Shown here piece after piece: positions 2,158 through 48,210 of a stretch of DNA of 49,232 nucleotides; positions within the stretch are counted from its first letter, which is position 1, and each line of letters begins with the position of its first letter. Made by a program: the position numbers and the translations under genes. The stretch spans positions 1-49,232 of the IMG/VR virus record IMGVR_UViG_3300037484_000744; one strand, written 5' to 3'. The notes under the pieces were generated by a model. It ran no database searches. It had not been told where the DNA came from and saw only the letters and a program-made list of their open reading frames with translations. Source of the stretch: a virus.

Positions 2158-2447
2158 TCCCAACACAGTACCCCAAGTGCACCGTCTGCAGCGGCACCGG
2201 CGCCAGGCCCATGGCCTCGGCGTACGAGGTCCCCAAACGCTGCAAAGCTTGCCGCGGTCACGGGCGTCTAGTGCCCACGGCTGACACCCGTGTCGCGCGC
2301 AAGGAGCGCGGCCTGCGCTGCTTCACGCTGTGGCTTGCCGCGGAAGACGCTGCGGCGCTGGACGAGTTGCGTGACGCGCTAGGCTCCCATGCGGAAGGCG
2401 TCCGGGCCCTCGTGGCCTTTTGGAGAAAGAAGCGGCCTCGCAAATGA
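2154..2447 (+). CDS. Small protein with a DnaJ-type zinc-finger pair (CTVCSGTG ... CKACRGHG)
   Basis: ATGA coupling at 2154; two CxxCxGxG motifs at residues 9-37; alpha-helical C-terminal half. Confidence 0.6.
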   Translation: MIPTQYPKCTVCSGTGARPMASAYEVPKRCKACRGHGRLVPTADTRVARKERGLRCFTLWLAAEDAAALDELRDALGSHAEGVRALVAFWRKKRPRK

Positions 2448-2665
2448 ACAAGGACGAACGACTAGTCTGGAGCACGCGGCGCCGCGTGCACACGGCGGAA
2501 GACCGTTTTCGCAAAGAACAAGCTTTGCTTAACGCGGCGGTCACGCGTCTGCGCCAGCGTGGCACCTGCACGCACCCGCGCACGCACGCGGGGTTCACAG
2601 GCGGACCCACTTACATGCGGTGCAGCGTGTGCGGCGTTGCCGTGCGAAAGTTGGTGGCGAAATGA
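2444..2665 (+). CDS. Hypothetical protein (73 aa) with a C-terminal Cys/His cluster
   Basis: ATGA coupling at both ends; CTHPRTH...CSVC. Confidence 0.5.
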   Translation: MNKDERLVWSTRRRVHTAEDRFRKEQALLNAAVTRLRQRGTCTHPRTHAGFTGGPTYMRCSVCGVAVRKLVAK

Positions 2666-3285: not shown

Positions 3286-3292
3286 GGTCACC

Positions 3293-4633: not shown

Positions 4634-4641
4634 GACGCCGC

Positions 4642-4903: not shown

Positions 4904-5605
4904 ATGCCGGAAACGAAAAAGACCCGCGTGCGAGTGACCGCCATTCACCCTAAAGACTCTAACCCCGCGCATGAGGTGGGAGACGTGCGGGAAGTAGACT
5001 TGTACGACCCCGAGGGAGACAATGACGTTGACACTTCGGAAAGTGTGGTGCTGTCCTCATCATGGGGTACACCGTGGGTGGTACTGAGGGCGCACCCGCA
5101 TAAGAGAAATGCGGTGGACACCTTCTGCCAAGTGGAGGTGCTGGATACTGATGAGGAGGCAGCGCCCGCATCGGCGGTCCCGATCTTCATGTCGACCGAC
5201 TCAGCGGATCGCAAGCTATGCCCCGTCACGACCGGCTTCCTTGGTTATTTCCCCGACGCGGCTATGTGCGTCGCGTTCGTGAGCTACAACGGAAACCAAA
5301 AGCACAATCCCGGCGAGCCGCTCCACTGGGCCAAGGAGAAATCGAGCGACGAGAAAGACGCCGAAGCACGCCACATGCTGGACGCGCTGCGCGGGCTCCC
5401 GCCCGACCCGGGGCTAGAGCGCCTGGGAAACCTATGTCACCTAGCAAGCAAAGCTTGGCGTGCGATGGCAGACCTGCAGCGCGCTTGTGACGTGGAGCGC
5501 GCGGCGTACACCAAGGCGCAGCGTGCGGCGCCGTTGCGCGCGGACTTCGAGACGGGGCGCGTGGCGTTACATTCGTGCGACGCGTGCGCCCGCGCCGGGA
5601 TGTAA
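4904..5605 (+). CDS. Protein with a C-terminal dATP/dGTP diphosphohydrolase-like (DUF5664-like) domain; unknown N-terminal domain
   Basis: Strong RBS AAGGAGACC precedes the ATG at 4904. The motif YFPDAAMCVAFVSYNGNQKHNPGEPLHWAKEKSSDEKDAEARH matches my memory of that family. The stop abuts the TerL ATG (TAAATG). Confidence 0.5.
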   Translation: MPETKKTRVRVTAIHPKDSNPAHEVGDVREVDLYDPEGDNDVDTSESVVLSSSWGTPWVVLRAHPHKRNAVDTFCQVEVLDTDEEAAPASAVPIFMSTDSADRKLCPVTTGFLGYFPDAAMCVAFVSYNGNQKHNPGEPLHWAKEKSSDEKDAEARHMLDALRGLPPDPGLERLGNLCHLASKAWRAMADLQRACDVERAAYTKAQRAAPLRADFETGRVALHSCDACARAGM

Positions 5606-7165: not shown

Positions 7166-7172
7166 TGGCACC

Positions 7173-8846: not shown

Positions 8847-8849
8847 CGC

Positions 8850-10657: not shown

Positions 10658-10749
10658 CCGACCGTCGGCATACAGCCATGTTCGCGATCGCTGTTTCGTT
10701 TGCAGCGGGCACCGCCGGTTGGGTGGCGCTGTGGCTGGTGCTGTCATGA
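10654..10749 (+). CDS. Possible 31-aa single-TM peptide
   Basis: GTGA overlap at its start and ATGA overlap at its end; hydrophobic FAIAVSFAAGTAGWVALWLVL. Confidence 0.3.
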   Translation: MTDRRHTAMFAIAVSFAAGTAGWVALWLVLS

Positions 10750-11579
10750 GCACGGTGGAGTGGCACTGCGCCGAGTGTGGGTACGCCGAGCGCTGCGCTA
10801 CGCCAGACTACGCTATTGGCGAGTGGGAGCCGTGCCCCAAGTGCTCTGGCCTCGCGCGCGTGCGCGCCGTGCGCGGGCGCAGGCCGCGCGCGTTTTGGGC
10901 GCTGGCGGTTACGCTGCTGGCGCTGGTCGGGTGCAGCGCTGCCCCGGGCGCGCACCGTCTGGAAGCGCAGGCGGTAATTGTCGAGGCGCCCACGGATGAC
11001 TCAGACCACGTCTTCCTCACCGCGCCGATCGACACCCGCGCCGTGGTAGTGCTGATCAGCGGGTACCAGCGCAAGTGCACCGGCGTGGCGGTGACGCCGT
11101 GGCACATCTACACGGCTGACCATTGCCTGCAGGATGCGGACGCGGTTGGTGTTCAGTCGACGCTACGATTTGTAACGGCGCAGCACTGGGCAGACCGCGG
11201 TGGGACGCTCGCGGCCAACGAGCCGCACACAACCACCGTGATCGCGCGTGACGCTGGGATGGATCGCGCGCTCCTGCAGTCGAGTGTCGAGCTCGAAGCT
11301 TTCCTAGACATTGCGCCGGTGCATCGCGACGAGTGGGTGTGGACCGTGGTGCAGCGCGACGCGAGGTGGGAGGCGCTATTGGACACGAGCGGGGAGCCCG
11401 GCAAGTTCGCTGCGAACGTACCTATCGACCACGGGGACAGCGGCGCACCGGTGATCAACGTGTATGGCCAGCTTGTCGGGATAACAACCAACTGCCTCAA
11501 CGATCACGAGATCGACAATCCGGCTACCAACTGCGACGGCGGCGGCAGGTGGCGCCCGTTCGCGATGTGGTATCAGTGA
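10746..11579 (+). CDS. Trypsin-like (S1) serine protease with an N-terminal zinc ribbon and a lipoprotein-type signal (LVGC)
   Basis: Catalytic motifs TADHC (His126), DRALL (Asp173) and GDSGAP (Ser232). The signal is RRPRAFWALAVTLLALVGC. The N-terminus has CAEC...CPKC. An internal GTG start just before the signal peptide is also possible. Confidence 0.75.
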   Translation: MSTVEWHCAECGYAERCATPDYAIGEWEPCPKCSGLARVRAVRGRRPRAFWALAVTLLALVGCSAAPGAHRLEAQAVIVEAPTDDSDHVFLTAPIDTRAVVVLISGYQRKCTGVAVTPWHIYTADHCLQDADAVGVQSTLRFVTAQHWADRGGTLAANEPHTTTVIARDAGMDRALLQSSVELEAFLDIAPVHRDEWVWTVVQRDARWEALLDTSGEPGKFAANVPIDHGDSGAPVINVYGQLVGITTNCLNDHEIDNPATNCDGGGRWRPFAMWYQ

Positions 11580-29323: not shown

Positions 29324-29511
29324 GCCACGCCCGGCAGCGCCAACTGACGACGGCGCCATCGGCCGTGATGCCCTTGCCACTGGAACCGGTGGCGTGGACA
29401 GCGGCAGGACGCGTGTCGCGTGCGGTGCCCGCAGCGGCGCCAGTACGTGCGGCCACCGGGCAGCAACGCCTCCAACCAACCGCCCTCACACCGCACCGCC
29501 GGTAGCTTCAC
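29320..29511 (-). CDS. Possible 63-aa Cys/His/Trp/Arg-rich protein
   Basis: GTG overlaps the methyltransferase TGA (GTGA); GC3-rich; its stop shares CTAG with the convergent gene. Confidence 0.3.
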   Translation of the reverse strand: MKLPAVRCEGGWLEALLPGGRTYWRRCGHRTRHASCRCPRHRFQWQGHHGRWRRRQLALPGVA

Positions 29512-30389
29512 GCCGCCCACCCCTCGGCGCGGCGCAGGGGCAACGGCGCCAGGCCCACCTGGTTGGCAACGTGCAGCGCGTCCGCCAGGCGCCGGAGGGC
29601 GCGCGCGTGCGTCTTGCGTTCGTGCTTCTTGGGCGGCTTTGCAGTGGCGGCGGATGCCTCCCGCACCCACCGCTCGGCCCACAGTTGGGCCCGCACCCGG
29701 TCCCGGTCGGAAAGGGACGCCACGACGCGCAGGGCGCCCGCCTCAGCCCAGCACTCCTGGAGCTCGACGCAGAGGGCGCCCCTACCCAAAAGCCTCGCAG
29801 CGAGGCCCGTGGTGCAAGCGCCGGCCGTGAGGTCCAGCACCATTTCACCCGGGTCGGAAAACCAGGACACGATGCTGAGCATGAGGTCCAACGGTTTCTC
29901 CGTCGGGTGCTTCTCGGCGCCGCGCAGGGACTTCTCTTCAAAGCTTACAAGAGAGCCGGGGCCGTTCCAGTGCATGCGCCCCGCGCCTGCGTTGTGGCAC
30001 GTGACCACGTCCTCGCTACCGGATGTAGGGCGGTCCCCCGACTTCTGCGGTTGGCTCCACCGAACCCAGGGCACGGTACGGACGTATCGCGCACCGGCGC
30101 CGGTGGCCGCGTCCCGCCACAGGTGTGAACTCTCCTTGTCCGTGAACAGCACGGACCACCGTTGCACGTTGGCCGCGGCGATGGCGATGCGCTCCCTAAG
30201 CAAGTCGTCCAGTGGGTCGAAACCAAAGTCGCGCTTGCGCGTTCCTACGCCACCGGTGCCGGCGCTGGTAGCGTTGCTGTGCACGTGCGGACTGTACGGC
30301 GCATCCGTTGCCAGCAGGTGGAAGTGCTTGTCCAGGTCCAGCGACAGAAAGCGCGAGTCCGCGCAGATGACATCGACGGACGGGGTCAT
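29508..30389 (-). CDS. DNA methyltransferase (N6_N4_Mtase family, beta-class order; N6-adenine or N4-cytosine)
   Basis: Motif IV LLATDAPYS, HPTEKP, and motif I VLDLTAGACTTG; ATG at 30389 is coupled (ATGA) to the upstream gene. Confidence 0.85.
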   Translation of the reverse strand: MTPSVDVICADSRFLSLDLDKHFHLLATDAPYSPHVHSNATSAGTGGVGTRKRDFGFDPLDDLLRERIAIAAANVQRWSVLFTDKESSHLWRDAATGAGARYVRTVPWVRWSQPQKSGDRPTSGSEDVVTCHNAGAGRMHWNGPGSLVSFEEKSLRGAEKHPTEKPLDLMLSIVSWFSDPGEMVLDLTAGACTTGLAARLLGRGALCVELQECWAEAGALRVVASLSDRDRVRAQLWAERWVREASAATAKPPKKHERKTHARALRRLADALHVANQVGLAPLPLRRAEGWAA

Positions 30390-30766
30390 GCCGGCACCGA
30401 ACCCACGCATGCCTCGCACACCCCATCCCCACGTACACGATGGGTGCTGCCGCACAGTTGGCACGCCTGTTTGGCCGGAGGCGGATTGCGCTCCCCGAAC
30501 GCCGCGCGCAACGCACGAAAAACCAAGTCGTGCGCGTAAAGGCGCTGCCGCGGGAAGTTCAGCACCGCGCCGCGGCGCAGCACCTTCTTGACTTGCGCGG
30601 TTGCGATCTCCCGCACGGTGGCACCGAACCCGCCCACCTTGGAAAACAGGTACTCGTAATTACCGCGCGCCGAGTCCCCGCCCACGTTGTGGATGATGCC
30701 CTCGGACAGCACGCGGGCGCGGGTGCTGTCCCCGCCCGGCCACAGTTCGATCTTGATGTAGATCAC
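30386..30766 (-). CDS. Hypothetical protein (126 aa) with a C-terminal zinc ribbon
   Basis: GTG start coupled by GTGA; CQLC...CEAC near the C-terminus; the long upstream extension of ORF 30386..31204 looks non-coding. Confidence 0.5.
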   Translation of the reverse strand: MIYIKIELWPGGDSTRARVLSEGIIHNVGGDSARGNYEYLFSKVGGFGATVREIATAQVKKVLRRGAVLNFPRQRLYAHDLVFRALRAAFGERNPPPAKQACQLCGSTHRVRGDGVCEACVGSVPA

Positions 30767-32563: not shown

Positions 32564-32782
32564 TCATCGGGCCTCCTGCCACCAACACGACTCGGTACTA
32601 CAGCGGAATGTCACAGGCCGCCCGGCGAGCACGCCATCGCACACGCTGTGTTCGCCATTCCAACACTGATAGTAGCCGATGCCCATGCGCGCGGCGAACT
32701 CGGCCTGTACCACGCGTTGGGAAGCGTAGTCCTCCTCTGACATGCACGCGCACAGGAGGAGCGCCAGCAGGGCGCGCTTCAC
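32564..32782 (-). CDS. Small Cys-rich lipoprotein (lipobox LLLC)
   Basis: GTG start coupled (GTGA) to the oxygenase stop; VKRALLALLLCAC signal; six further Cys in the mature part. Confidence 0.5.
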   Translation of the reverse strand: MKRALLALLLCACMSEEDYASQRVVQAEFAARMGIGYYQCWNGEHSVCDGVLAGRPVTFRCSTESCWWQEAR

Positions 32783-33723
32783 TCGTACACCCGTGAGCGC
32801 GCAAGGCGTTCTTTGAGCCACTCGCCGACGGTCGCCGGGCGCCACGTGTTCTCCACCGTTTGCCCGCCGCGCGCGCTAGTCATCGGCAACCGCGCCGCGT
32901 GCGACGGCATAGCGAAGTAAACGATCGACTGCTGAGTGTACGGCCGCGCCGGCACGCGGTGAGGGGTCGCCGGGCCGAGGCCTACGAGCTCGCCGATTTC
33001 GCCGATGTGCAAGCCGGGGGACATGCGCATCGCCTCTTGCACGAGGCGCCGCTGTTCGGGCGAATAACCGCGCGTGTCTAGGGCGCTACCGATCCCGAAG
33101 CATGACGAGTCCGCCTCGGGCAACACTTCGCCGCACCGGTTACACGAGGGTGGTGTCGAGTCACCAAGTCCGCCCAAGTCGTGCGCAAGATACTTGCCGG
33201 CTTTGATTCCGATCTGCAAATCCTCGAGCGTGCTTCGGTAGCAAACGATCGTAAACAGATCGAAGTCCGTGTGCTCCGGCTGAAACCCACCCGACTGGTA
33301 CTCGAGTACGCGCAACGTGCCATCTTCGGGGCGGGGGTAATAGGCGTCCGGCACGTCGAGCGCCGTCGCCACTTTGCACGCCTCCCAGTGCGCGCGGGCC
33401 AAGTAGGCGCGGGCCCACTCCGGGGGGTTGTACTTTTCCGCCACGTGAAGATAACGCGCGGTGTCGGGCGCGACGTTCGGTACGCGGCCGCTATCGGCGC
33501 ACGTTGGGCACACCAGCGGTGGATCGTAACCGTGGCCGTTGCACGTCGCGCACTCCCGCGTATCCCCGTTCGGCGCCTCCTTCACGGCGGGGCGATAGCC
33601 GGGGTACACGGGCGCGCCCGCGCCTTGCCCGCCGGCTTCATCATCGCGAGCGAACAAGGTCGCGAGGCGTGCGTGGTCTTGCGCATTTAAAATCATTTGC
33701 CCGCCTTTCGTGGGCGTGTACAT
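32779..33723 (-). CDS. 2OG-Fe(II) oxygenase-superfamily protein with an inserted zinc-finger module and a Cys-containing insertion
   Basis: RBS AAGGAGACC precedes the ATG at 33723. LRVLEY...PEHTDFDLFTIV supplies H-x-D, and LHIGEIGELV...ATPHRV supplies the distal His. SIVYFAMP follows, with Gln where Arg is usual. CATCNGHG...CPTCADSG lies near the N-terminus. Confidence 0.7.
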   Translation of the reverse strand: MYTPTKGGQMILNAQDHARLATLFARDDEAGGQGAGAPVYPGYRPAVKEAPNGDTRECATCNGHGYDPPLVCPTCADSGRVPNVAPDTARYLHVAEKYNPPEWARAYLARAHWEACKVATALDVPDAYYPRPEDGTLRVLEYQSGGFQPEHTDFDLFTIVCYRSTLEDLQIGIKAGKYLAHDLGGLGDSTPPSCNRCGEVLPEADSSCFGIGSALDTRGYSPEQRRLVQEAMRMSPGLHIGEIGELVGLGPATPHRVPARPYTQQSIVYFAMPSHAARLPMTSARGGQTVENTWRPATVGEWLKERLARSRVYE

Positions 33724-34124
33724 GTGGTCTCCTTTGCGGGCAACTCGCTACCCATTGCAGTTAGAACGCGGTCGAGTGCCTCCGCAACTTGTGCCCAGTG
33801 CTCGCCATCGTTGTGCCAGGTGACCGGGTCAGCCAACACCTGCGCGAACGCCAACGCCGGCATGTCGCCGCGCGCTTCGTTGCACGCGGCGCAGCACGTG
33901 ACTAGGTTGCTGTGGTGGTTGCTGCCACCGCGGGTGCGCGGTAGCACGTGGTCCAACGTAGCCAGGCGCGGGCGCCTGCGCGAACCGAGACCCGCGGGCG
34001 GGGCAACCAGCGCCAAGCACCAAACGCAACGGTACCCATCGCGGGCGTAAATACGCAGACGCTTGGCTTTGCGGATCCACTTGGACCCATGGCCGTGGTT
34101 GCCGGCGTCAACACCGCGGCTCAT
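33693..34124 (-). CDS. HNH endonuclease
   Basis: RIYARDGYRCVWC...LDHVLPRTRGGSNHHSNLVTCCAACN; ATG at 34124 is coupled by ATGA. Confidence 0.85.
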   Translation of the reverse strand: MSRGVDAGNHGHGSKWIRKAKRLRIYARDGYRCVWCLALVAPPAGLGSRRRPRLATLDHVLPRTRGGSNHHSNLVTCCAACNEARGDMPALAFAQVLADPVTWHNDGEHWAQVAEALDRVLTAMGSELPAKETTCTRPRKAGK

Positions 34125-35989: not shown

Positions 35990-36552
35990 CGGGTCTCCTT
36001 CGGTCGGAAGTGCGCTTCGCACTCTTCCGGGTTGTCTAAGTAATAGCGCCCAAGTCCCCACGCGTCCAGCGCGTTGTGCAACTTGAACGAGCGCGGGTAG
36101 TACGAAACGCCGGGGCGCTTCCAGTTGTCCAACGCGCCCTTGTCGATGGCGCGCTCGATTGCATCCGCGGTGGTGCTCCCACCGAAGATCGCGCGCTCGG
36201 CCACGGACATCGCAAGCCAAAGCCTGCCATGGTGCACAGGCTTCGGGAGCATGCCCTTCCACTGCGACGGGTGCAACTCGCACAGGCGTGCCTTGGGGCC
36301 GCAGAGCGACGCGGCGACGAGCGCACCTTCCCAACTCAGGTTGATCAGATCGATCGGCCTCGCGCCCATTGAACGATCGCCCTGGTGCTCGGGTCGTTCT
36401 GCTACCACCACATCCGCGTGCGACCACCCAACCGGGCGCGCGGGGTGCCGGACGAACGCCCACGCTCGGCACGTGCCACGAAAGAAGTCCGCCACGGCCG
36501 AGCCGGCGCCCGCGCTGCCAGGGTCCACGGCCTGTACAACGTGGACTTTCAC
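35986..36552 (-). CDS. RuvC-like Holliday-junction resolvase
   Basis: GTG at 36552 (GTGA-coupled); VVQAVDPGS (first catalytic Asp), VVVAERPE, and LHNALDAWGLG (C-terminal acidic motif). Confidence 0.6.
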   Translation of the reverse strand: MKVHVVQAVDPGSAGAGSAVADFFRGTCRAWAFVRHPARPVGWSHADVVVAERPEHQGDRSMGARPIDLINLSWEGALVAASLCGPKARLCELHPSQWKGMLPKPVHHGRLWLAMSVAERAIFGGSTTADAIERAIDKGALDNWKRPGVSYYPRSFKLHNALDAWGLGRYYLDNPEECEAHFRPKETR

Positions 36553-36995
36553 GGTCGCACCGCTGCCAGGCGTCGAGCCTTGCGCTGCGCACGCCGGTTG
36601 CGGTTGGGCGGCAACACCTCCCCGCACGCGCGGTCCCACTGCCACGGTTCGGCGCGCTCTTCTGCCTCGCGGTCGCGGAAGGGCATGCCGGCGTCGATCC
36701 ACTCCTGCCGCGTGCAGTCCTCCACAATCTCGGCGCGGCCGAAGTCGCCGCGGCCCTCGCAGGCAGTGCAGCGCGGCACCACGCTCGCCCCAACGCCGCC
36801 GCACGCGCGGCACACGTTCACAGCGAACGGAGGCGCACCGCCTAGGAACTCGCGGCCCTGCACTCGCCACCACTGCCGCACCCGGCGCAGGCCCGCGACG
36901 AAAGCGATTTCTGCCAAACGACAGGTGTACGCCTCCAAGCTTTCAGCGAGACCGAGGCGCTTGACGCGCGGTTCCCATCCTGCGTAATCGATCAT
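36549..36995 (-). CDS. Protein with a DnaJ-type zinc-finger pair (CRACGGVG ... CTACEGRG)
   Basis: Two CxxCxGxG motifs; Arg-rich C-terminal tail. Confidence 0.6.
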   Translation of the reverse strand: MIDYAGWEPRVKRLGLAESLEAYTCRLAEIAFVAGLRRVRQWWRVQGREFLGGAPPFAVNVCRACGGVGASVVPRCTACEGRGDFGRAEIVEDCTRQEWIDAGMPFRDREAEERAEPWQWDRACGEVLPPNRNRRAQRKARRLAAVRP

Positions 36996-39900
36996 TTACT
37001 TACGGTACCTTTCACCTGTGAACCCATCGCAGTCGATGGGGAAATCGTATGCCCACTGTGGCAGTTCCAGCATGCACTCGTCAAGGGTACGCGCTGCGAT
37101 TTTGCGCAGTGCACGCGGCACCTCGGCACCCGCGCTGTCATGGATGTGGATCACCATCTTGAGCCCGCGCCGTTCCGCACGCACGAGTGCGGCGGCGAGC
37201 AGGCACCGGCACATGGCCTGCACTGCGTTCTCCGTGAGCTTCCCCCCGTAGGTCCAATCGACGCCGCGATGCCCGTCGAACACGATGCCACCGGGGCGCC
37301 GGTTACCTTCCAGTCCCTTTTTGGTGAGAGCCTCATTCGCGAGAGTTGCATCACGCCGCGAGGCGAAACGCATTCCGGGGTACAGGACGAACCTACCACT
37401 CGGCAGAATAAGTGCAACGTCCTTCCCGTCACTTTCGAAACGGAACATGTTGCGCAGGCCACACAAGCCGGTGTGGCCCCCGATGGCGTCCTTAGCCGCG
37501 TTCTCTATGTCGGCCCAAAATTGGACGATCGGCGCGTGCACCTCGCGCCACGTGTCCACCACGGTCTGCCCATCCGTGCCCACGTCCGCCAGCGTCTTCC
37601 CGATCTTCGCTAGTTCCTTGTCTGCGTTGGACTGGAACTTTCGCGCGCCGGCACCGTACCCCAGCATGAGCTCTGCGATCTTGCCGATCTGTCGGCGCTC
37701 GTCCTTGCCAATCTCCTCCACCGGGACACCGAAGATGCGGCTAGCCATGGCCTTGTACGGGTCCGCGCCACTCGCCACCACGGCCAGCGCCGCAGCGTCT
37801 TCCGCTGTCCAGGCAAGCCCGCGCGCTTCGACCCCCTTGAAGTCGCGCTCAACGAACACGCACCCTGGCTCCGCATACAGGCACGCGCGCAGCAACATGG
37901 GCATCTCGAGCGGGTGCACGTGCGCGCCCGCAATCACGTCACGCACACGGCGCCGAATGTCCTTGTCGGTCCACTTCTCAAAAATGTCGTCAGGGCGTGT
38001 GAGGTTGTGCGGCTGCAACCCAACGCCTGCCCACCTACCGGTATTGTGCGTTACAATATACCCTCGAGTGATGTACAAATGGTCACTAGCCTCGACTTCG
38101 ATGCACGTCGATTCCTCGACCCCATCTTTTTCGACGCTCACAACCGCACGCCACGGAGCGCGCCTAGTTCCCGTCCAACGTCGAGCCTTTCTCTCGAGAC
38201 CAAAGGGACACACATCAACGGGTATGTGACAGTTTACCGAGTATATTACGCCGTCACCGAGGCGTTCAACGTATGCGCGCGCCGTGCCACCGATAGACTG
38301 AACGAGCTCAATCACTGCGTCTCGCAAGTGTGGCGAACACGTCGCGTACTTTACGACTCCCGGGCTCTTTGCGGAACCATCCGTATCAAAAAGCCCACGC
38401 AAAAGCTCAACACGCGCTGCGAAGGACGCCAAACCATACTCTGGCGGAATGAACTTCGTGAACGAGTCGTGCCCCCAAAGTCCAAGGCCTTCGAGTGCTA
38501 CACGTAAAGGGTTACGCCGCCTAGGCGGTAGCGGCTCGCCTCTGCGAACAAGTGCGTAGTAGCAACCCACGCACAAGCCTCGAACGGCTCGGCCGCCATG
38601 CCCGCACGAAGTGGCGTTAGCTGTACTGATAACGAATCGGTAGTGAAAAGCCTTCTTTCCGGGTACAGGCCGCACGACCGCGCGCACCCCGTTCAACTGG
38701 AATCTTGCTGCGATCTCGGGGTCGCCTGACGTGAAACGCGGGCAGTCACCCACCATACAACCGTCACCAAGGAGTGCCCCTAGCGTGTACGGGTCAATTG
38801 GCAGTACGTCGGGCCGTTCCGTTCGGTCGGCCACAAACGGAACGGTGTACCGGTGCCTTTTGCCGTACGACAAATCCCCCAGGTCCCTAAGGCGTATTAC
38901 ACGTGGCTTACCGCACGCACGCACACTCCACAAGTGCTCTGCGTCACACCTAGTCCACGAACCATCAGAGAATGTAACGCGGTATACCTGTCGCAACCCC
39001 TGCGGGTAAGTTCCTGCGACACGCGTCGGTCCTGTACGGCCTTGAATGACGTCACCCACTCGCAACTCGCCCATGGCAACCCACCCCAATGGCGTTCGAA
39101 CGGGCTCGGAGTTGGGCTGCGCGTGCGCGGCCCAGTACTTGAACATGTCCCGCAACCGGCCGTCGGGGGACACGCGCGCGATGCCGGCTTCAAGCTTTCC
39201 TCTTACGATGCTGGCTAGCGCCGTCCGCGCCTGCACCAACTCCCGCACGGCGCGCTTGGGGTGGTGCTCGTACTGCTCCACCTCGTCCGCGGTGGCGCTG
39301 TGGCAGTCGGTGGCGCCGCTCTCCCGCATCCACTTGCAGAACGTGGCGGCGTGTCGGATGCCGGACACGAACAGGCGCTCCGTCGCGAACTTGACGATCG
39401 CGGGGTTGGGCACCTTGCCGTCCGGCGCGTGCTGCTTCTGCAGCCGGCGCATGGTGTTGGTGTCGGGGTTAGTGATGCGCGCGCCAAGGTGCCGCAACCA
39501 CTCCACCGTTTCGCGCTTGTCCAGCACCCGCGGGTCCACGCCCACACCCTCGGCGCCGTGCCGCGCGTCCTCACGCAGCAGGGCCTTAGCAAGCGCCACG
39601 TCGAAGCAGATCCCGCGATCGTTGATCAGCCGGTCCACTTCCTCCGCATCGGTCTCCACGTCCAGGAAGTCCTCCAGGAACGGCCAGAGCCCGACCGTGC
39701 CGGTCAAGTCGTCTCGACAATACGCCATTACGCGGCGCAGCACCTCCGGGGTGATTAGTGGCAGCTGCCCCAGGCGCGCCTTGGCCTTGCTCGGCTGACT
39801 CAGACGCAGCGTGAAGGCGTTGCCCTCCTTGTCCTTCCTGCGCCCGAGCAGCCGCGTCAGAAGCTTGTCCAGCGAACCTGGGTACCCCGCGCGCGCGGCG

Positions 39901-40199
39901 AGGTGCATGGTGTCGATGTAGCGCCGCGGCTCCGGCCAGCCGAGCCGGCGCCACGCATGCCGATCGAACGTCATCATGTTGTGCGCGGCCACAGCGTCCG
40001 GCCGCGTGCGCCCGTAAGGGCACCGGTCCCCCGGTGCCCACTCCACGATCTCGCCTTCCACCTGCAGCACCGCGCAGATGACTTCGGCAGTGGGATGTTC
40101 CCAGTAGGCGCGCCCCCCGATCTTTTTCAGGTCACACTGCGACTTGTCCGCGCGGGACTCGAAGTCGACGAAATCGGGGGTGCGCGCCGTGCCGGGCAT
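36996..40199 (-). CDS. Family A DNA polymerase with a 3'-5' exonuclease domain, interrupted by an intein
   Basis: Exo I FVDFES; pre-motif ...KYWAAHA[intein]TGRWAGVGLQPHNL; motif A VERDFKGVEARGLAW; motif B RRQIGKIAELMLGYGAG; motif C IHIHDS. Confidence 0.9.
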   Translation of the reverse strand: MPGTARTPDFVDFESRADKSQCDLKKIGGRAYWEHPTAEVICAVLQVEGEIVEWAPGDRCPYGRTRPDAVAAHNMMTFDRHAWRRLGWPEPRRYIDTMHLAARAGYPGSLDKLLTRLLGRRKDKEGNAFTLRLSQPSKAKARLGQLPLITPEVLRRVMAYCRDDLTGTVGLWPFLEDFLDVETDAEEVDRLINDRGICFDVALAKALLREDARHGAEGVGVDPRVLDKRETVEWLRHLGARITNPDTNTMRRLQKQHAPDGKVPNPAIVKFATERLFVSGIRHAATFCKWMRESGATDCHSATADEVEQYEHHPKRAVRELVQARTALASIVRGKLEAGIARVSPDGRLRDMFKYWAAHAQPNSEPVRTPLGWVAMGELRVGDVIQGRTGPTRVAGTYPQGLRQVYRVTFSDGSWTRCDAEHLWSVRACGKPRVIRLRDLGDLSYGKRHRYTVPFVADRTERPDVLPIDPYTLGALLGDGCMVGDCPRFTSGDPEIAARFQLNGVRAVVRPVPGKKAFHYRFVISTANATSCGHGGRAVRGLCVGCYYALVRRGEPLPPRRRNPLRVALEGLGLWGHDSFTKFIPPEYGLASFAARVELLRGLFDTDGSAKSPGVVKYATCSPHLRDAVIELVQSIGGTARAYVERLGDGVIYSVNCHIPVDVCPFGLERKARRWTGTRRAPWRAVVSVEKDGVEESTCIEVEASDHLYITRGYIVTHNTGRWAGVGLQPHNLTRPDDIFEKWTDKDIRRRVRDVIAGAHVHPLEMPMLLRACLYAEPGCVFVERDFKGVEARGLAWTAEDAAALAVVASGADPYKAMASRIFGVPVEEIGKDERRQIGKIAELMLGYGAGARKFQSNADKELAKIGKTLADVGTDGQTVVDTWREVHAPIVQFWADIENAAKDAIGGHTGLCGLRNMFRFESDGKDVALILPSGRFVLYPGMRFASRRDATLANEALTKKGLEGNRRPGGIVFDGHRGVDWTYGGKLTENAVQAMCRCLLAAALVRAERRGLKMVIHIHDSAGAEVPRALRKIAARTLDECMLELPQWAYDFPIDCDGFTGERYRK
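38043..39122 (-). mobile_element. Intein (about 359 aa) with a LAGLIDADG homing-endonuclease domain; class-3-like signature
   Basis: Ends ...YIVTHN followed by T of TGRW; LGALLGDGC and LLRGLFDTDGS are LAGLIDADG blocks. No Cys/Ser at the N-terminal junction (AHA/QPNSEP). G+C and codon usage are visibly lower than in the flanking extein. The N-terminal boundary is uncertain by 1-2 codons. Confidence 0.8.
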
Positions 40200-41084: not shown

Positions 41085-42824
41085 CTAGGCCGCATCTTCA
41101 AGCCACCGCCAACGGTTGGCTTTCGTAACTGTTGGTCTACCACGCACAACCGTTGCACGCAGTATCTTATTTTGGAGTGAGAGCATCCGCTCGTTCTGAC
41201 GTGCCTCGCCCAGCGCGCGGTCCCAGGCGGCGTAACTGTCCCCGCTCGTACAGAGCACGGTAATTTCAACCGGGTGCTCCTGGCCGGCGCGATGGATGCG
41301 GCCGAACAATTGTTCCAGGTAAAGCGCACTCGGCGTGATGTTCACAAGCAACGCCTTGTGCCAATGGTATTGCAGATTGCGCCCGCGCAGGTTGCTTTGC
41401 CAGCTGGACACGGCGCTAACGCCCTTGGGGCTGTTGTCAATCTCCACGCCTGCGGCGTTGCAACCCTTGTCCGCGTAGTACTGCAGCCGGCTCACCTTCG
41501 CCAGCGCCTCACCGAACGCGGTGGCGCCGCAGAACGCAATCGCCGGCCCTTCGCGCTGCAGCCACTTGGACGCGTACTGCAACGTGCTGGCGGAAATCCA
41601 ACGCTCGACGCTGTTGGGCTTGAACTTGTTTTTTACTTCGAGCCAATCGGTCACGCGCGGATCGTCCGGGTACGCCGCAACCACCGCGGCGTATGTATCC
41701 AGCGGGTTGCGCGTATTGGCCGTCGCCTTGATGCGCCCGCGCACGAACTTGGCGCACACGATGCGCGGTTCCAACCACCACTTGGGCGGCTTTGGGTCCC
41801 ATTCGTAGTACAACCCGGCGCCCAGCCAATCGCAGTGCATGGCGTAGCTGAGGACGTTTTTCTTTCCCTCGCCTTGCATGAGAGGAATTCCACCCGGTGT
41901 GATCCACAACCGGCGCAGCGTCTTGTAATGCTCGTCCAGGATGGGATCTTCAGGCGCACACACAAGCTTGATGGTGAGCGGTTGCTCGCAGCTGTCCCCG
42001 CGCACGATCACGACGCCTGGGGTTGAGAGCACGCGCTTTCGGAATGCGTTCTGCGCACCGCGCTTGGTCTCCGGCTCGCCCATGGCGCGGCACAGCTTTG
42101 CTAGCGCCCCGATGTGCACGTGCATCCCGTTGCGCTTGGGCTTCTCGTCCAGCGCTGCGGCCCACATGGCCTGTTCGGTTGGGTCCGTTGGCACCGGCGC
42201 ATGCTGCCCGAGCGCCCAAACCATCTGGGGCATGTAGTCCAGCGCGCTGTGGCGCCCCGGCGTGGCCGTGAGCTCAATCACCGCTGGCTCGTTGCCAAAC
42301 ACCTCGCGCGCAATGCGCTTGTGCACGCTGGCGTCACTGTTCCGGGAGCGATCACTCTCGTCAATGATCAGCACGTCCGGCTTATGCCGTGCCAACAGGT
42401 CAACGTTTTTCTTGTTGGTTAGATCTTCAAACCCAACGAGCCGCGGGGGTGGCTTGGGTGATTTCCACACGCCAACGAACTCACGGAACTCTCGGTACGT
42501 CTTTTTCTTGAGGCCACCGGGCAGCAAAAGAATGGGCGCGCGGGCTTGAAGTATGACGCAGATCAACCACGTGAGGAGCGTCTTACCCGCGCCGACGGAC
42601 AACGCGGCGTACTGCCCAACGATGCCCGTATCCCGGTACAGCCGCAACAGCTCGGCAAGGCAGAACGCTTGCCACACGCGGAGCCGCGCGTGCGGTTGCA
42701 GCGCCAACAGTTGCGTCATGTGCTTGCGGTCCTCCCTAGCTTGGGCCAGTGAAAGCGGCCGGCTAGGGAGGGCAAGGATGCGCCGCAGGTCTGCGCTGTC
42801 TCGGACTTCTGCGGCGCGCGGCAT
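41085..42824 (-). CDS. SF2 (DEAD/DEAH-type) helicase
   Basis: Walker A SVGAGKT; motif II IIDESD; motif III TATP; motif VI GRIHRAGQ. Confidence 0.85.
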   Translation of the reverse strand: MPRAAEVRDSADLRRILALPSRPLSLAQAREDRKHMTQLLALQPHARLRVWQAFCLAELLRLYRDTGIVGQYAALSVGAGKTLLTWLICVILQARAPILLLPGGLKKKTYREFREFVGVWKSPKPPPRLVGFEDLTNKKNVDLLARHKPDVLIIDESDRSRNSDASVHKRIAREVFGNEPAVIELTATPGRHSALDYMPQMVWALGQHAPVPTDPTEQAMWAAALDEKPKRNGMHVHIGALAKLCRAMGEPETKRGAQNAFRKRVLSTPGVVIVRGDSCEQPLTIKLVCAPEDPILDEHYKTLRRLWITPGGIPLMQGEGKKNVLSYAMHCDWLGAGLYYEWDPKPPKWWLEPRIVCAKFVRGRIKATANTRNPLDTYAAVVAAYPDDPRVTDWLEVKNKFKPNSVERWISASTLQYASKWLQREGPAIAFCGATAFGEALAKVSRLQYYADKGCNAAGVEIDNSPKGVSAVSSWQSNLRGRNLQYHWHKALLVNITPSALYLEQLFGRIHRAGQEHPVEITVLCTSGDSYAAWDRALGEARQNERMLSLQNKILRATVVRGRPTVTKANRWRWLEDAA

Positions 42825-44416
42825 CAGGAACCCAAGGACGCGGCGATCGCGGCGATGGCGTTGGGGTCGTTGCTCTCGACCGTGAGGCGAAACGTGACGG
42901 CGCTGGACGGTGCTGCAGCGGCAGCCTTGGGCGCCTTGGCAGCAGGGGCATCAGGCGCGGGGCGCGCCTGAGGTCGCGTGGGGCCGGGCGGAGCGGCCTT
43001 CTTGGCCTTGGGCGCGGGCTCCTCGTCTTCGTCTTCGTCCTCGTCCTCTTCCTCCTCGTCTTCGTCTTCGTCTTCGTCTTCGTCTTCGACGGGCGGTGGG
43101 GCCTTCTTGCCTTTCTTGGGCGCGGGTGCCGGCTCGTCTTCCTCTTCCTCGTCTTCTTCCTCGTCTTCCTCTACCGGGGGCGGCGGGGCTTTCTTGCCTC
43201 CGGCCTTCGCGTTGAGGGCTTCGAGCTTGGCCATGTAGTCGTCCGGGCTCGTGGGTTTCGGTTTTGCCATGATGATAGGTAGTCTCCTTTTCGCAATTGA
43301 CGCGCAAGCCAAACCAAGCGACCGGTGCGCGTCACACCGCCCGCCTCGTGAAACATGATGCTCACACCCCGCGAAGTTGTCGCACGACTCGGGGTTGCGG
43401 ATGCACTCATCTAGGGTCTCGAGTGTATCCAACTCGGCCGCACGCGCGGCCATCGCTTGAACCTTAGCCGTCACCTCGGCGGGCGTCAAGGCCATGGCGC
43501 GGGCCCACGCGTTGCGCTTGCCCCGCGTGCAGAAGTACACCCAACGCATGAAGATGGGGCGCTCGCCGCCCGCCCCCACACGCTGGCACAGCGCATCGTA
43601 TGCGTACAGGTTGACCTGGCCATCGTCCTCCAGGATCTCCGGCTCGTGCCAACGCTTGCGACCTGTGGCCGCAAATGCCGCAGCCGTAGCGCGGGTGTCC
43701 TTCACGTACCCTTCGCCGGCCGTCGACTTGTAGTCGAACGTCACCCAATCGGAGGGCCTAACGCCGCGCTTCCACAGCGCCAAGCGCTTGAGTCCAGCTT
43801 TAGAGATGCGGGCGCGGAGGTCAATGAAGCCCTTCCACGTGACGCCGAACGCACGCCCGCCGAACACGGGGACAGCGCCGGCGCCCTTGCACGCGTGGCA
43901 CTTCTTGCGCCGACCGATGGCGCCTACGCGGCCCTGCCCTGCGCACGCCTCGCACGCGTCCGGCGCGAGCGGCACGGACTCCTCCAGCGTGAGACCGTTC
44001 TCAATCCGGATTTCGATGCACTCTTCCGGACGCGGCAGCAGGTGCAGCCCGGACAGCGCGATCTGTCCCGGTAGCGAGTCCCAATCCGGCGCGGGCCCCT
44101 GGCCGTAGTACCCTTCCAGCACGGCGTGCATGCCCTTGCCGAGGGAGGCTGACCATTCCTTCCGCAGCACCGTACGCCCGAAGTGCTTCGCCAGAATGAC
44201 GCCCATGTCATCCGAGCCGGGCTTGCCCTTCTGCGCTGGCGTCCACCACGGGAATTCACCCGCGAAGATCCGTTTCCACGGAAGCTTGACGCACGCCTCG
44301 AACTCGGCCCACGGCGTATCGAGCCGCGGTGCACCCTCGATGTACCGGATGCCCCATGCGTACTCACACTCATACGCCAGCGCGATGCTGGACGGGCTGT
44401 GGTGGGGTCGGGTCAA
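42824..44416 (-). CDS. PD-(D/E)XK Cas4/DUF2800-like nuclease with an inserted zinc-finger module and a long acidic/Lys-Pro C-terminal extension
   Basis: TTG start. N-terminal SPSSIALAYECEYAW; core FIDL...FDYKS; C-terminal Cys cluster CDNFAGCEHH...C; insert CEACAGQG...CHACKGAG. The tail has Glu/Asp runs separated by PAPKKGKKAPPP. Confidence 0.75.
   Translation of the reverse strand: MTRPHHSPSSIALAYECEYAWGIRYIEGAPRLDTPWAEFEACVKLPWKRIFAGEFPWWTPAQKGKPGSDDMGVILAKHFGRTVLRKEWSASLGKGMHAVLEGYYGQGPAPDWDSLPGQIALSGLHLLPRPEECIEIRIENGLTLEESVPLAPDACEACAGQGRVGAIGRRKKCHACKGAGAVPVFGGRAFGVTWKGFIDLRARISKAGLKRLALWKRGVRPSDWVTFDYKSTAGEGYVKDTRATAAAFAATGRKRWHEPEILEDDGQVNLYAYDALCQRVGAGGERPIFMRWVYFCTRGKRNAWARAMALTPAEVTAKVQAMAARAAELDTLETLDECIRNPESCDNFAGCEHHVSRGGRCDAHRSLGLACASIAKRRLPIIMAKPKPTSPDDYMAKLEALNAKAGGKKAPPPPVEEDEEEDEEEEDEPAPAPKKGKKAPPPVEDEDEDEDEDEEEEDEDEDEDEEPAPKAKKAAPPGPTRPQARPAPDAPAAKAPKAAAAAPSSAVTFRLTVESNDPNAIAAIAASLGS
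43021..43172 (-). repeat. Coding GAA/GAC/GAG triplet-repeat tracts (poly-Asp/Glu)
   Basis: Plus strand shows (tcgtct/tcctcg)n runs at 43021-43089 and 43133-43172. Confidence 0.85.
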
Positions 44417-44759: not shown

Positions 44760-44948
44760 ATGCAGACCGTCAATAACGTCACGCGCGTTGACAACCGAAA
44801 ACCAAACAAATATTGGCCCCCGGCACTGTGCTCGGCCGTACTGATTGCGGGCGGCGTTACGCTGTGCTGCGCGGGACACCTTGTGCCCGGGTGCATCGTT
44901 CTTTTCTTTGGTGCATTTTGCGCCGTTGCAATTGTGGTGACCACGTGA
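44760..44948 (+). CDS. Small membrane protein (62 aa, two hydrophobic segments, Cys-rich)
   Basis: RBS AGGAGACC precedes the ATG at 44760 inside ORF 44547..44948. Confidence 0.55.
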   Translation: MQTVNNVTRVDNRKPNKYWPPALCSAVLIAGGVTLCCAGHLVPGCIVLFFGAFCAVAIVVTT

Positions 44949-45673
44949 TCGCCGTTGCCAAGCGCCTGGTTGGCTTCCTGCTGTGGCTCGCGCTGCGGCT
45001 GTACGTGTTCGTGGCCCGGCGGCCCATGCGTCGCCTGCGCCCAGATGAAGCAGACTACATCGATCGGTACTTCCTCACCAGCACACCGCAGGGTGACGAG
45101 ACCGGCACGCCCGGTTGGTACCTGCAGCGGATCTACCGCGCGGACCCGGACACGCGGTTACACACGCACCCGTGGGCACACAGCAAAAGCTTGATTCTGC
45201 GGGGCGGGTACGGTGAGCGAAAATGGGCGCACGAACACGTGACGCAGACGCGCTGGTACACGCCACTCACCTGGAACACGTTCCCGAACCGCTACGTGCA
45301 GCACCGCATCTTTTGGGTGTGGGGTGACACCTGGACGTTATTCTATGCCGGGCCGAAGCACGGCAAGGGTTGGGGGTTCGTGGGAAACACCCGAACAGAC
45401 GAGGCAACGCGGGCAGCACATTCGGTGCGGGGCGTGTGGTGGGGGAAAGCGCTGCGGCCTGTAGGTGCGGGGGACCTGGTGACGGTGGAAGGCGTGGACG
45501 TGCAGAACTGTGCACGCTGCGGTGGCTGTGGATACGACCCCGATCCGGGAGCCGCCGGATACGAGGGAATGTGTGTCGCGTGCCAAGGTAACGGCACGGT
45601 GCCCCACACAGATGAAGACGAACCCACCATGCCCGGCGTGGGCTCACCTGCGTGGGAACGGGGCGCCCGTTGA
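44945..45673 (+). CDS. N-terminally membrane-anchored protein with an LHTHPW cupin-like core and a C-terminal zinc-finger module
   Basis: GTGA-coupled GTG start; hydrophobic LVGFLLWLALRLYVFV; core RLHTHPWAHSKSLILRGGYGE; CARCGGCG...CVACQGNG. Confidence 0.55.
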   Translation: MIAVAKRLVGFLLWLALRLYVFVARRPMRRLRPDEADYIDRYFLTSTPQGDETGTPGWYLQRIYRADPDTRLHTHPWAHSKSLILRGGYGERKWAHEHVTQTRWYTPLTWNTFPNRYVQHRIFWVWGDTWTLFYAGPKHGKGWGFVGNTRTDEATRAAHSVRGVWWGKALRPVGAGDLVTVEGVDVQNCARCGGCGYDPDPGAAGYEGMCVACQGNGTVPHTDEDEPTMPGVGSPAWERGAR

Positions 45674-48210
45674 GAGACACCATCACGGTGCTCCGCACCG
45701 CGTCCCGACGCAAACGTCTGACCAAGGTGTACCGCGCGGACGGCAGCGTCCAGGCGTTCGATCGCGTGGCGCAGTTCGTTGTGGATGCGGAGGTGCGTGT
45801 GCGCACCTTCACCGATCTGCTGCGACTGCTCATGGCGATCGAAAACGATCCCACGCGCTGCGTCGTCCGCGGCGACGTGCACCCGGACGTGGTGCAAGGT
45901 GCCGGCGGGGAGCGCGTCCGGCGCGTCTCCAAGGTGCCCAAGGACGACCCCACCATCACGCCTCCCTTCCGCCCAGCCGCGCGGCAGTGGGCCGCCATCG
46001 ACGTGGACGAGAGCACCACCCCCTACGACCCCGAGGACCCCGAGGGCAGCGCGGCGCAGTGGTTCGAAGACGTTGGCGCCCGCCTTGGCATCAAGGCCTG
46101 CGTGTGGCAGTGGAGCTCCTCCGCGCACCGCTCGCCCACCGTGCGCGGCCGTGCGTGGGTGCTCCTGGACCGACCGCACACCGATCTCGAGATGCGGGCG
46201 TGGGCTGGCACGTGGGGCATTGACGATTCCCACTATACCGCAGTGGCCATCCATTACACTGCAGCACCTAAGTGGGAGAAGCACTGCGACGCGTGCGGCG
46301 GGCCCGGCAACGGCCCATGCGCCGAGTGCAATGGCTCCGGCGTGGTTCCTGACTCTGATGCGGACCCCCTGGCGGGGCGCAGGCTTCTAGTGCTGGGCGA
46401 TCCCTCCGACGGGCCGTGCGTGCTGCTCCCCGGCGAAGGCGTGGCGGTGGAGGCGCGCCCGGCGCTCACGGCGCTAGACCTGGAGGCCAATGCCGAGGCC
46501 GTGCACGATGACCCGCGCGCGCAGGCGCTTCTCCAAAGCCTGCCGTTGGCATCCGAGTGCCACGGCAGGAAGTGGCCCCTCTGCGGGGCGCTGGGCGGCG
46601 TGTGGCGCCGCATGCTGGTGCCGGAGGACTCGGCGGTGGCCGCGTGCACCGCGTGGCTCGCCGAGGCCGCTGAAGGGGACACATCCGTGGACGTGGCGGC
46701 GGGGGTGGCGCACATGCGCGGCGCGTACCAACGCCCGGCGGTGGAGGTGTCCGGCGTGGACACGCTGCAACCGCTGTTGGGCGAGGCCATCACTGGGGGC
46801 GTGGTGGACGCGGCGCTAGGGTGCACGGGGTTGGGCGCGCGTGCGCTTGCCGCGCGGCAGGAACGCGAGGACGCTGCGGACCCGCTGGCGCACGCAGACC
46901 CATCCATGTACACGGAGCAGCCGCTGATTTTGCAGTCCACCAAGGACGGCCGCGTGGCGCTGTGGCAGGGGGACGAGCGCGGGCACGCCAGCATCACCAT
47001 CAGCGCGCTGCGGCTCCGCATTCGTGAATTGGGCCTGCCCATTGAGCTCAAAGGCGCCGATGGGGGTTCGATCGCCGCGGGCACCGTGGTGGAGGCCAAC
47101 GGCACCACGTTCGACAATTACGCCCGCGATTTCGCCGCCGGCGTGAGTAGGTACGAACGCGACAGTCGCACGCTGATCGAAGGGTACCCCGACGCCTGCA
47201 CGGTGCCGGGCGTGTTTGATGCGGACGTGGATGCGTGGCTGCGCGCCATGGGTGGGCGGCAGTACGAGCGCTTGGCCGTGTGGGTTGCCAGCTGCGTGCA
47301 GCGGAATATTGGACGCCTTTCGGCGGCGTTGGTCATGCTTGGGCCGGCCGATGTAGGCAAAAGCTTGTTTGCTGCAGCGTGCGCAGGGCTCTGGGGTGAG
47401 GCTGCGTGCCCGACCGCGAACCTGTTGATTGCTAGATTCAACGGAGGCCTAGCTAAGTGCCCCGTGGTGTTCGACGACGAGTGTCGCTTGTTCGGCTCGC
47501 GGGACCTGAGCACGAAGGCCTTCCGGGACCTGATGCAGAAGCCCGAGAGGCAGGTGGAACCGAAGGGGTTGGAGGCCTACACGCTGCGTGGGTGCACGCG
47601 GCTGATCGTAGCGGGCAACGAAGCCGGGGACCTACGCTTCGACGATGTGACCGGGCCAGACGTGGTCAAAGCGGTCGCTGACAGGCTTTTGGTGATAGAC
47701 GCAAAACCGCGCGCGGTGGAAGCGCAGGCGGCCTTGGCGCGGCTGCGCGGGGACGGGGCGTGGACGGTGGACCTAGCTCGAGTGGTGGCGCACTTCGCCT
47801 GGTTGGGGGAGACGGTTGCCCTGCCAGCGGAAAGGTTCTTGGCTGCGGGCGATGGCGCCGTGGCGGCTGCGGCCGTGCTCGCGGGGCACGCCGAGGCCTC
47901 CGTGGACGCGTGGGACTCGCTGCGGGAGTGGCTGGACGCCCCGCATGGGGAGCGCGACGTGCGGGTGTGGTCGGTGCACGGGGGCCGGCTCTGCGTGGAC
48001 CCGCGGGCGCTGCGGGACGTTTTGGACGACACCCACCGATGGGACGCCGTGCGGGTGCGGGAGGCGCTGCGGCCGTTCTTAGAGCGTGAGGTGCGTCCCA
48101 GGGTGGGCATGGGGCGTCCTAGGCCGCGCCTGTGGCAGCTGGACGCGTTGAAGGTGTGCGAGTCGTGCAGCGTGGCGCCGCGGGCCCTAGCGGGGCGCCT
48201 GGGGCTTTAG
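45652..48210 (+). CDS. Primase-polymerase (AEP-like) / SF3 helicase fusion protein
   Basis: N-terminal acidic motif AAIDVDE; inserted CDACGGPG...CAECNGSG; Walker A GPADVGKS; Walker B VVFDDE. Alternative TTG start at 45670 is coupled by TTGA. Confidence 0.7.
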   Translation: MGTGRPLRDTITVLRTASRRKRLTKVYRADGSVQAFDRVAQFVVDAEVRVRTFTDLLRLLMAIENDPTRCVVRGDVHPDVVQGAGGERVRRVSKVPKDDPTITPPFRPAARQWAAIDVDESTTPYDPEDPEGSAAQWFEDVGARLGIKACVWQWSSSAHRSPTVRGRAWVLLDRPHTDLEMRAWAGTWGIDDSHYTAVAIHYTAAPKWEKHCDACGGPGNGPCAECNGSGVVPDSDADPLAGRRLLVLGDPSDGPCVLLPGEGVAVEARPALTALDLEANAEAVHDDPRAQALLQSLPLASECHGRKWPLCGALGGVWRRMLVPEDSAVAACTAWLAEAAEGDTSVDVAAGVAHMRGAYQRPAVEVSGVDTLQPLLGEAITGGVVDAALGCTGLGARALAARQEREDAADPLAHADPSMYTEQPLILQSTKDGRVALWQGDERGHASITISALRLRIRELGLPIELKGADGGSIAAGTVVEANGTTFDNYARDFAAGVSRYERDSRTLIEGYPDACTVPGVFDADVDAWLRAMGGRQYERLAVWVASCVQRNIGRLSAALVMLGPADVGKSLFAAACAGLWGEAACPTANLLIARFNGGLAKCPVVFDDECRLFGSRDLSTKAFRDLMQKPERQVEPKGLEAYTLRGCTRLIVAGNEAGDLRFDDVTGPDVVKAVADRLLVIDAKPRAVEAQAALARLRGDGAWTVDLARVVAHFAWLGETVALPAERFLAAGDGAVAAAAVLAGHAEASVDAWDSLREWLDAPHGERDVRVWSVHGGRLCVDPRALRDVLDDTHRWDAVRVREALRPFLEREVRPRVGMGRPRPRLWQLDALKVCESCSVAPRALAGRLGL

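Follow-up and report, generated by a model that had tools for sequence, protein, structure and literature searches.

Six unrelated proteins of one tailed-phage genome carry DnaJ/anti-TRAP-type double CxxCxGxG cassettes, most of them as loop insertions or terminal additions

The sequence analysed here is IMG/VR record IMGVR_UViG_3300037484_000744, whose 49,232 nucleotides are referred to as the window throughout. It is a tailed-phage genome or near-genome of 49.2 kb with a G+C content of 65%, in which 63 genes were called with a codon-usage model. It encodes a terminase, a portal, a major capsid protein and a DUF3383 protein, a baseplate region (g33-g37) that matches the baseplate genes of the relatives L011 and L013, and a replication block formed by a primase-helicase, a PD-(D/E)XK nuclease, a ResIII helicase and a family A polymerase. 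An initial annotation had pointed out that a short cassette of two CxxCxGxG motifs recurs in at least six unrelated proteins of this genome, and had proposed that one half of the DnaJ cysteine-rich domain, sufficient for a single zinc, was grafted onto them as a loop insertion or terminal tag. A six-frame scan recovered all six pairs in coding frames, each within an open reading frame (ORF) picked by the gene call, in proteins that span 97-852 aa. On the plus strand, the motifs lie at 2178-2201 and 2241-2264 (g06, 97 aa), at 45509-45532 and 45572-45595 (g61, cupin-like), and at 46285-46308 and 46318-46341 (g62, primase-helicase). On the minus strand, they are found at 33529-33552 together with a degenerate CPTCADSG ending at 33487 (g49, a 2-oxoglutarate (2OG) oxygenase), at 36789-36812 and 36747-36770 (g55, 148 aa), and at 43931-43954 and 43877-43900 (g60, nuclease). 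Eleven strict motifs and the degenerate one of g49 thus make up the six pairs. The motifs and coordinates of the initial annotation were confirmed, while two of its spacers had to be corrected, to 6 residues instead of 7 in the 148-aa protein and to 13 instead of 15 in the cupin-like protein.

When the residues of the 63 proteins were shuffled within each protein (2000 replicates), the mean number of CxxCxGxG motifs was 0.03 and the maximum 2, versus 11 observed. No strict pair was expected and five were observed, and for CxxC the figures were 4.6 expected and 25 observed. A genome of 65% G+C is rich in Cys and Gly codons and could produce such motifs by composition alone, and three more CxxCxGxG strings (10861, 35816, 47966) do occur, isolated, in non-coding frames, where we take them for noise. 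However, since the shuffles yield neither the motifs nor the pairs and related loci of the same G+C are almost empty of them, we consider a compositional artefact refuted, with virtually no probability left to it. The frequency of cysteine pairs is well above that of shuffled sequences of like composition.

Related genomes were seen as stretches of at most 10 kb on each side of an anchor gene, and the nuclease-anchored loci were located with a 12-sequence alignment. Versus six cassette ORFs in the 49 kb of the window, one was present in 53 nuclease-anchored metagenome loci (410 kb) and none in the syntenic relatives L004, L005 and L009 (54 kb), in six IMG/VR loci (102 kb) that share the replication module or in three oxygenase-anchored IMG/VR loci (54 kb). 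This amounts to one cassette ORF in about 620 kb of similar G+C, and the density in the window is approximately 30-50 times that of related phages. The loci L298 and L302, which together cover 30.6 kb of one 50.8-kb contig, encode homologues of the oxygenase, the nuclease, the primase and PolA, all without a cassette, and relatives picked for their cassette-bearing oxygenase carry the cassette in that gene only. The module itself is not private to the window; it is widespread in viral contigs, with at least 120 matches in each of two IMG/VR pattern scans. The matches listed are mostly small proteins with the cassette toward the C-terminus, along with some insertions in larger proteins. One IMG/VR contig of 9.1 kb (L171) has four small cassette ORFs on its plus strand, at 1319, 5889, 6166 and 6802, each of 60-96 aa from stop to stop and with a two-motif cassette near the C-terminus; these may be paralogues.

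Homologues of the individual hosts were then compared at the cassette positions. In the primase-helicase g62 (45652-48210), which matches phrog_16950 and DUF5906, the cassette (46270-46350, +) is a 24-residue insertion, KWEKHCDACGGPGNGPCAECNGSG, which reads KWEKH-CDACGGPG-3-CAECNGSG, is followed by VVP and is immediately preceded by HYTAAP, a motif of the primase domain. The primase of phage Xfas53, the homologue P0002 and the primases of L005, L302 and L305 show a clean gap over exactly these 24 residues, and all five cassette-less proteins align on both sides of it, with HYTAAP upstream and (V/I)xxD..DPLxGxRL downstream.

The nuclease g60 (42824-44416) carries its cassette, CEACAGQG-10-CHACKGAGAVP, at 43868-43954 (-), in the variable loop before motif II of a Cas4/Exo5-like PD-(D/E)XK nuclease. 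An exhaustive HMMER search with residues 1-380 gave 350 homologue representatives, and among the 149 best of these none has a CxxCxGxG pair in its sequence, and the loop has a median length of 15 aa versus 39 aa in g60. The AlphaFold2 (AF2) model of g60, with a predicted local distance difference test score (pLDDT) of 81.6, is matched by Foldseek to MGME1, Exo5, RecB and Cas4, and has the cassette between strands 146-149 and 185-189. Cys4 inserts of other kinds are found in three different loops of this family: a classical CPxC...CPxC ribbon in the same loop as the g60 cassette (P0003), a classical CPxC ribbon in an N-terminal loop (P0084) and a DnaJ-type pair between motifs II and III (L054, 1456-2979). 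The last was considered as an equivalent of the g60 cassette on the basis of a BLAST alignment; on inspection it sits in a different loop, and it was therefore treated as an independent insertion. Apart from the cassette, g60 keeps four conserved cysteines (C17, C345, C351 and C361) typical of a Cas4/Exo5/AddB-type Fe-S cluster, and it has a long, acidic, Lys/Pro-rich tail of low complexity (core aa 416-466, nt 43019-43171).

The protein g49 (32779-33723), a 2OG/Fe(II) oxygenase with an HxD...H motif, has the cassette CATCNGHG-6-CPTCADSGRVP at 33478-33552 (-), as an insertion that follows EAPNGD close to its N-terminus. Foldseek matches of its AF2 model are thymine-7-hydroxylase (T7H, the best), IPNS and EFE, and the cassette is modelled with a pLDDT of about 80-88 between short strands 46-48 and 71-73. 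Of 382 homologues of g49, 119 were listed and inspected, and in at least 47 of these 119 the stretch between EAPNGD and VPNVDA..KRYLHVA, which is where the g49 cassette sits, contains at least two CxxC; 36 of the 47 contain CxxCxGxGxVP and 12 bear tandem cassettes. Distant members of about 200 aa among the homologues listed have no cassette. The oxygenase cassette is thus not private to this phage. A cassette-bearing member (P0153, L187:3591-4358) and a cassette-less one (P0156, L009:10001-10672, present on 15 contigs) differ by a clean in-frame indel of 33 aa (99 nt) that is exactly the cassette, while the flanks are about 93% identical at the DNA level. Because the indel separates two such near-identical genes, the oxygenase cassette is an accessory element that was recently gained or lost. 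As to the surroundings of g49, an HNH endonuclease and an N6/N4 DNA methylase are encoded nearby (33693-34124 and 29508-30419), and the homologues of a distant gene (4904-5605) bear a dGTP_diPhyd_N domain; with the T7H-like oxygenase, these genes hint at DNA base modification.

In two other hosts the cassette is a terminal addition. The cupin-like g61 (44945-45673) has CARCGGCG-13-CVACQGNGTVP at 45509-45604 (+) as a C-terminal extension. Its match to phrog_4786 covers aa 20-148 only, the alignments to its homologues in Achromobacter and Burkholderia phages and in L017, L020 and L301 (177-195 aa long) end at aa 146-172, and no phage or metagenome homologue extends as far as the cassette. In g06 (2154-2447), the cassette CTVCSGTG-13-CKACRGHGRLVP occupies the N-terminus (2178-2276, +) and the C-terminal half looks ribbon-helix-helix (RHH)-like; its sole homologue, an 83-aa protein of L005 (2015-2266), aligns to aa 45-95 only, that is, to the RHH-like half, and lacks the cassette. 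The cassette of g55 (36549-36995), CRACGGVGASVVPR-CTACEGRG, lies mid-protein (36747-36812, -). This gene, which begins right at the PolA stop codon, has no homologue in anything searched. In L009, the closest relative, PolA and the g54 homologue have no g55 between them, and this absence at the same position makes g55 look like a small gene of recent acquisition.

Looser Cys4 elements, which the initial annotation had noticed in a serine protease, a 126-aa protein and a 73-aa ORF, are present as well. The 126-aa protein g45 (30386-30766) ends in the Cys4 tail CQLCGSTHRVRGDGVCEACVGSVP (30392-30463, -), with CEACVGSVPA at its end. As phrog_8231 covers aa 1-93 only, the tail is an addition and, judged by its sequence, a seventh terminal addition of the zinc type, of a looser kind. 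The protease g17 (10719-11579) has a classical CxxC...CxxC ribbon at its N-terminus (10767-10844, +), and the 73-aa ORF has its element at 2567-2632. It was also observed that g17 is a trypsin-like protease within the structural gene block, with a hydrophobic helix after the ribbon that is probably membrane-spanning.

Homologues that align at the cassette position and yet lack the cassette were therefore found for five of the six hosts (g62, g60, g49, g61 and g06), the oxygenase family being mixed in presence and absence, and in none of these five do homologues universally carry the motifs as elements of the fold. The cassette is thus dispensable in these families, and the view that it was grafted into loops or added as a tag at chain ends of proteins with unrelated folds is supported. 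Since orthologues without it are common, the cassettes lie outside the catalytic cores. Motif, Foldseek and PHROG evidence also upheld the assignment of the hosts as 2OG oxygenase, PD-(D/E)XK nuclease, cupin-like protein and primase-helicase.

A profile built from the six cassettes and 22 others from homologues and relatives has the cysteine-rich domain of E. coli DnaJ as its best match (PDB 1exk, E 7e-11). It also matches the one-zinc protein anti-TRAP (PDB 3lcz, E 4e-5), DNAJA2, Ydj1 and the zinc finger of antiterminator Q. Searches of Pfam and NCBIfam returned only local, sub-threshold matches, and these to DnaJ and RtpA alone: for DnaJ_CXXCXGXG (PF00684, threshold 32.7 bits), g06 scored 21.8, g55 17.2 and g60 17.0 bits, with no match for g49, g61 and g62; for Anti-TRAP (PF15777, cut-off 32), g06 scored 18.3 bits; and NF058604 (RtpA, cut-off 65) gave 14-16 bits. 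Each of the proteins has two motifs versus the four of the DnaJ cysteine-rich domain, and no J-domain or chaperone gene was detected in the cassette proteins or in the early and replication genes scanned; for these two reasons the cassette proteins are not DnaJ. By sequence, the cassette is a knuckle pair of the DnaJ/anti-TRAP type, in agreement with the half-domain first proposed. The CxxC pairs might alternatively serve as a thiol-disulfide or a rubredoxin-like Fe(Cys)4 centre instead of structural zinc. Some plant DnaJ-like zinc-finger proteins are reported to have disulfide isomerase activity, and the nuclease already bears cysteines of the Fe-S type. Nevertheless, a redox or iron site seems very improbable, given that CxxCxGxG is the zinc motif of DnaJ and anti-TRAP and not the CxxCG knuckle of rubredoxin, and that the best profile matches are zinc proteins.

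We conclude that the cassettes are probably accessory, self-contained Cys4 metal-binding hairpins added to six otherwise ordinary phage proteins, on which they would act as rigid surface knobs. A single zinc would be bound by the neighbouring pair of CxxCxGxG knuckles, in the manner of anti-TRAP and of zinc centre II in DnaJ. The cassettes appear to occupy sites, either in a loop between neighbouring strands or at the chain end, at which the polypeptide can exit and rejoin the host fold and leave it undisturbed. Surface exposure may be expected in five of the six proteins. Such a hairpin could stabilise the loop or terminus that bears it and offer a contact surface to a protein or a nucleic acid.

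If, in a rival reading, the cassettes were nucleic-acid-binding fingers, each would help its own enzyme to hold DNA, for instance in template recognition by the primase, as zinc fingers beside primase domains do elsewhere. In favour of this, the primase cassette follows immediately after the primase catalytic core, the spacers of the g60 and g06 cassettes are basic, and the zinc finger of antiterminator Q is among the matches of the profile. However, most members of the primase, nuclease and oxygenase families function without the cassette, three of the six spacers are neutral or acidic, and the cupin-like host has no evident link to DNA. DNA contact is thus plausible for individual hosts and cannot be the general role; as an explanation of the whole set we hold it to be unlikely.

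Alternatively, all six proteins could bind one partner, either the host DnaK/DnaJ chaperone or a phage hub, through a shared docking tag that gathers replication and DNA-modification enzymes. A role on DNA is plausible for five or six of the hosts (the primase-helicase, the nuclease, the T7H-like oxygenase and the RHH-like protein among them), and the VP tail common to the cassettes is rare in other viral cassettes. But DnaK is contacted by the J-domain of DnaJ and not by its cysteine-rich domain, and the scanned early and replication genes include neither a J-domain nor a chaperone gene. Moreover, nothing is conserved beyond Cys, Gly and V-P, and the spacers vary from 3 to 13 residues and from basic (RRKK) to acidic (YDPDPG); with no surface conserved outside the ligands and V-P, it is unlikely that all six dock to a single partner. 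The cassette-less orthologues also thrive in relatives. Even with the partial DnaJ domain of HMO-2011-type DNA polymerases (PMC9038755, PMC6918029) counted in its favour, we rate this explanation as rather improbable.

As regards the route by which the accessory hairpins came to sit in six genes, the module would have accumulated repeatedly in this phage lineage, and its most plausible reservoir would be the oxygenase family, in which it is widespread and of long standing. A common origin of the six cassettes is weakly supported. The ending (x)xVP is found in five of them, and in g55 VVP follows the first motif. This tail was present in 4 of 97 cassettes of a tail-unbiased viral sample (Fisher p = 8e-6 versus five of six in the window) and in 36 of the 47 cassette-bearing oxygenases listed, and g49 and g61 have GYDP after the first motif in common. 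Several observations weigh against our account. The VVPD of the primase aligns to IFPD/VFSD of cassette-less homologues, and its VP tail is therefore at least partly host sequence. With a hidden Markov model (HMM) built from the oxygenase-family cassettes, the scores of the other five did not exceed those of random viral cassettes (p = 0.14), and neither nucleotide similarity between the cassettes nor flanking direct repeats exceeded the chance level of GC-rich DNA. With respect to structure, the AF2 models place both the oxygenase and the nuclease cassette between adjacent strands, but the latter is itself modelled at low confidence (pLDDT 50-61). For g55, no homologue was found in any locus, and its cassette is therefore not counted as an insertion. 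Of the related genomes only parts are known, reaching at most 10 kb from the anchor gene in each direction.

The cassette DNAs share only the motif and the identity imposed by G+C at third codon positions (42-79% over 24 nt), which bears out the earlier statement that they are not the product of a trivial recent duplication. The lack of nucleotide similarity and of flanking repeats, together with an overall HMM similarity to the oxygenase cassette that is not above background, would fit an independent, convergent origin, that is, separate capture or emergence of each cassette, driven by a pressure common to all (for instance, to stabilise loops in this host or environment), and no copying within the genome. 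The nuclease family repeatedly acquires Cys4 inserts of other types, and the abundance of the module in viral contigs provides a possible donor pool. On the other hand, six acquisitions versus about one in 620 kb of relatives call for a lineage-specific cause, and neither the enrichment of the VP tail nor the GYDP shared by g49 and g61 is in line with separate origins. Convergence is consequently a possibility that we take seriously, though a doubtful one. It is unlikely, in turn, that the cassette is a mobile mini-domain in the strict sense, namely a zinc-knuckle segment of 70-100 nt that was copied in frame from the oxygenase family into at least five other genes, has since diverged beyond recognition at the nucleotide level and, through shared knobs, lets several DNA-handling enzymes engage a common surface. 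If true, this would represent the intragenomic spread of a module of sub-domain size in a virus.

Some further features of the genome were recorded. The window has no megablast match and, with tblastn included, no close relative among isolate phages, the terminase identity being at most 34%. The sole isolate-phage match to the primase is Xfas53, at the primase N-terminus, and neither g49 nor g06 has a match among isolate phages. An exact look-up returned no public record with a sequence identical to the window nuclease, and scans of GTDB genomes with the nuclease and oxygenase alignments revealed no prophage relatives. The polymerase PolA (g56, 36996-40199, -) contains no CxxCxGxG motif and one CxxC only. 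It is interrupted by an insert of about 325 aa (~38151-39122) with a LAGLIDADG motif and the end ...THN/T (the slash marking the boundary), which looks like an intein; the insert is common to the PolA of L009/L010 (56% identity over the full length) and absent from the PolA genes of L005, L023 and L302. In the early region, a pentapeptide-repeat protein is encoded at 1259-1963 (+; Pfam E 2e-39).

Few structural units are as easily added to a protein as a small zinc hairpin, but such additions usually come to light in single families. Here, a single genome offers six unrelated hosts with the same type of unit and, for five of them, natural controls without the cassette. This opens the question of what a protein gains from a grafted zinc knuckle, be it stability, a partner or affinity for nucleic acids, and, as the natural pairs with and without the cassette are comparable, the gain is directly testable. 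The results are also a warning for annotation, since weak 'DnaJ' or 'anti-TRAP' matches in phage enzymes reflect local grafts and not chaperones.

Among known systems, anti-TRAP (RtpA) resembles the cassettes in having two adjacent CxxCxGxG knuckles, a single Cys4 zinc site and a short hairpin. Unlike them, it stands alone as a protein of about 53 aa, forms oligomers and binds TRAP, whereas the cassettes are fused into larger unrelated proteins and score far below the family cut-offs. The cysteine-rich domain of DnaJ/Hsp40 shares with the cassettes both the motif and the G-x-G-(R)-V that continues it; it differs in its four motifs and two interleaved zinc centres, set between the J-domain/G-F region and the C-terminal domains, while the cassettes have two motifs, no J-domain and Pfam scores of 17-22 bits versus 32.7. 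Bacterial ribosomal proteins exist in C+ and C- forms, in which a zinc ribbon was gained or lost, and are comparable to the oxygenase family in that a Cys4 element is present or absent within one orthologous family. Their ribbons, however, belong to the ancestral fold and were lost or disrupted, whereas in the window a foreign knuckle was added at loops or termini of several families.

The clearest published precedent for a graft into a phage replication enzyme is provided by the HMO-2011-type phages, whose family A DNA polymerases contain a partial DnaJ central domain with two CXXCXGXG motifs between the exonuclease and polymerase domains (PMC9038755, PMC6918029). There, the insertion affects one protein and is used as a lineage marker; in the window, the polymerase g56 is without a cassette and six other proteins bear one. 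The same half-domain is known from small phage proteins, as a two-motif DnaJ-like zinc finger in the Q-like gp45 of Acinetobacter phage Loki (PMC5313236) and in a protein of Bacillus phage Riggi (PMC3853051). In Xfas53, a hypothetical protein encoded just downstream of the primase (L001:5824-6546) carries CPTCHGRG-10-CAACGGSGMLP and resembles the window proteins in the cassette only. Unlike the situation in the window, these three cases concern one protein per genome, usually small and of regulatory type, and not an insertion into an enzyme. The module is therefore a known domain type with a published precedent in a phage enzyme, and what is new is its presence in six hosts of one genome, the exact points of insertion and the natural pairs with and without it.

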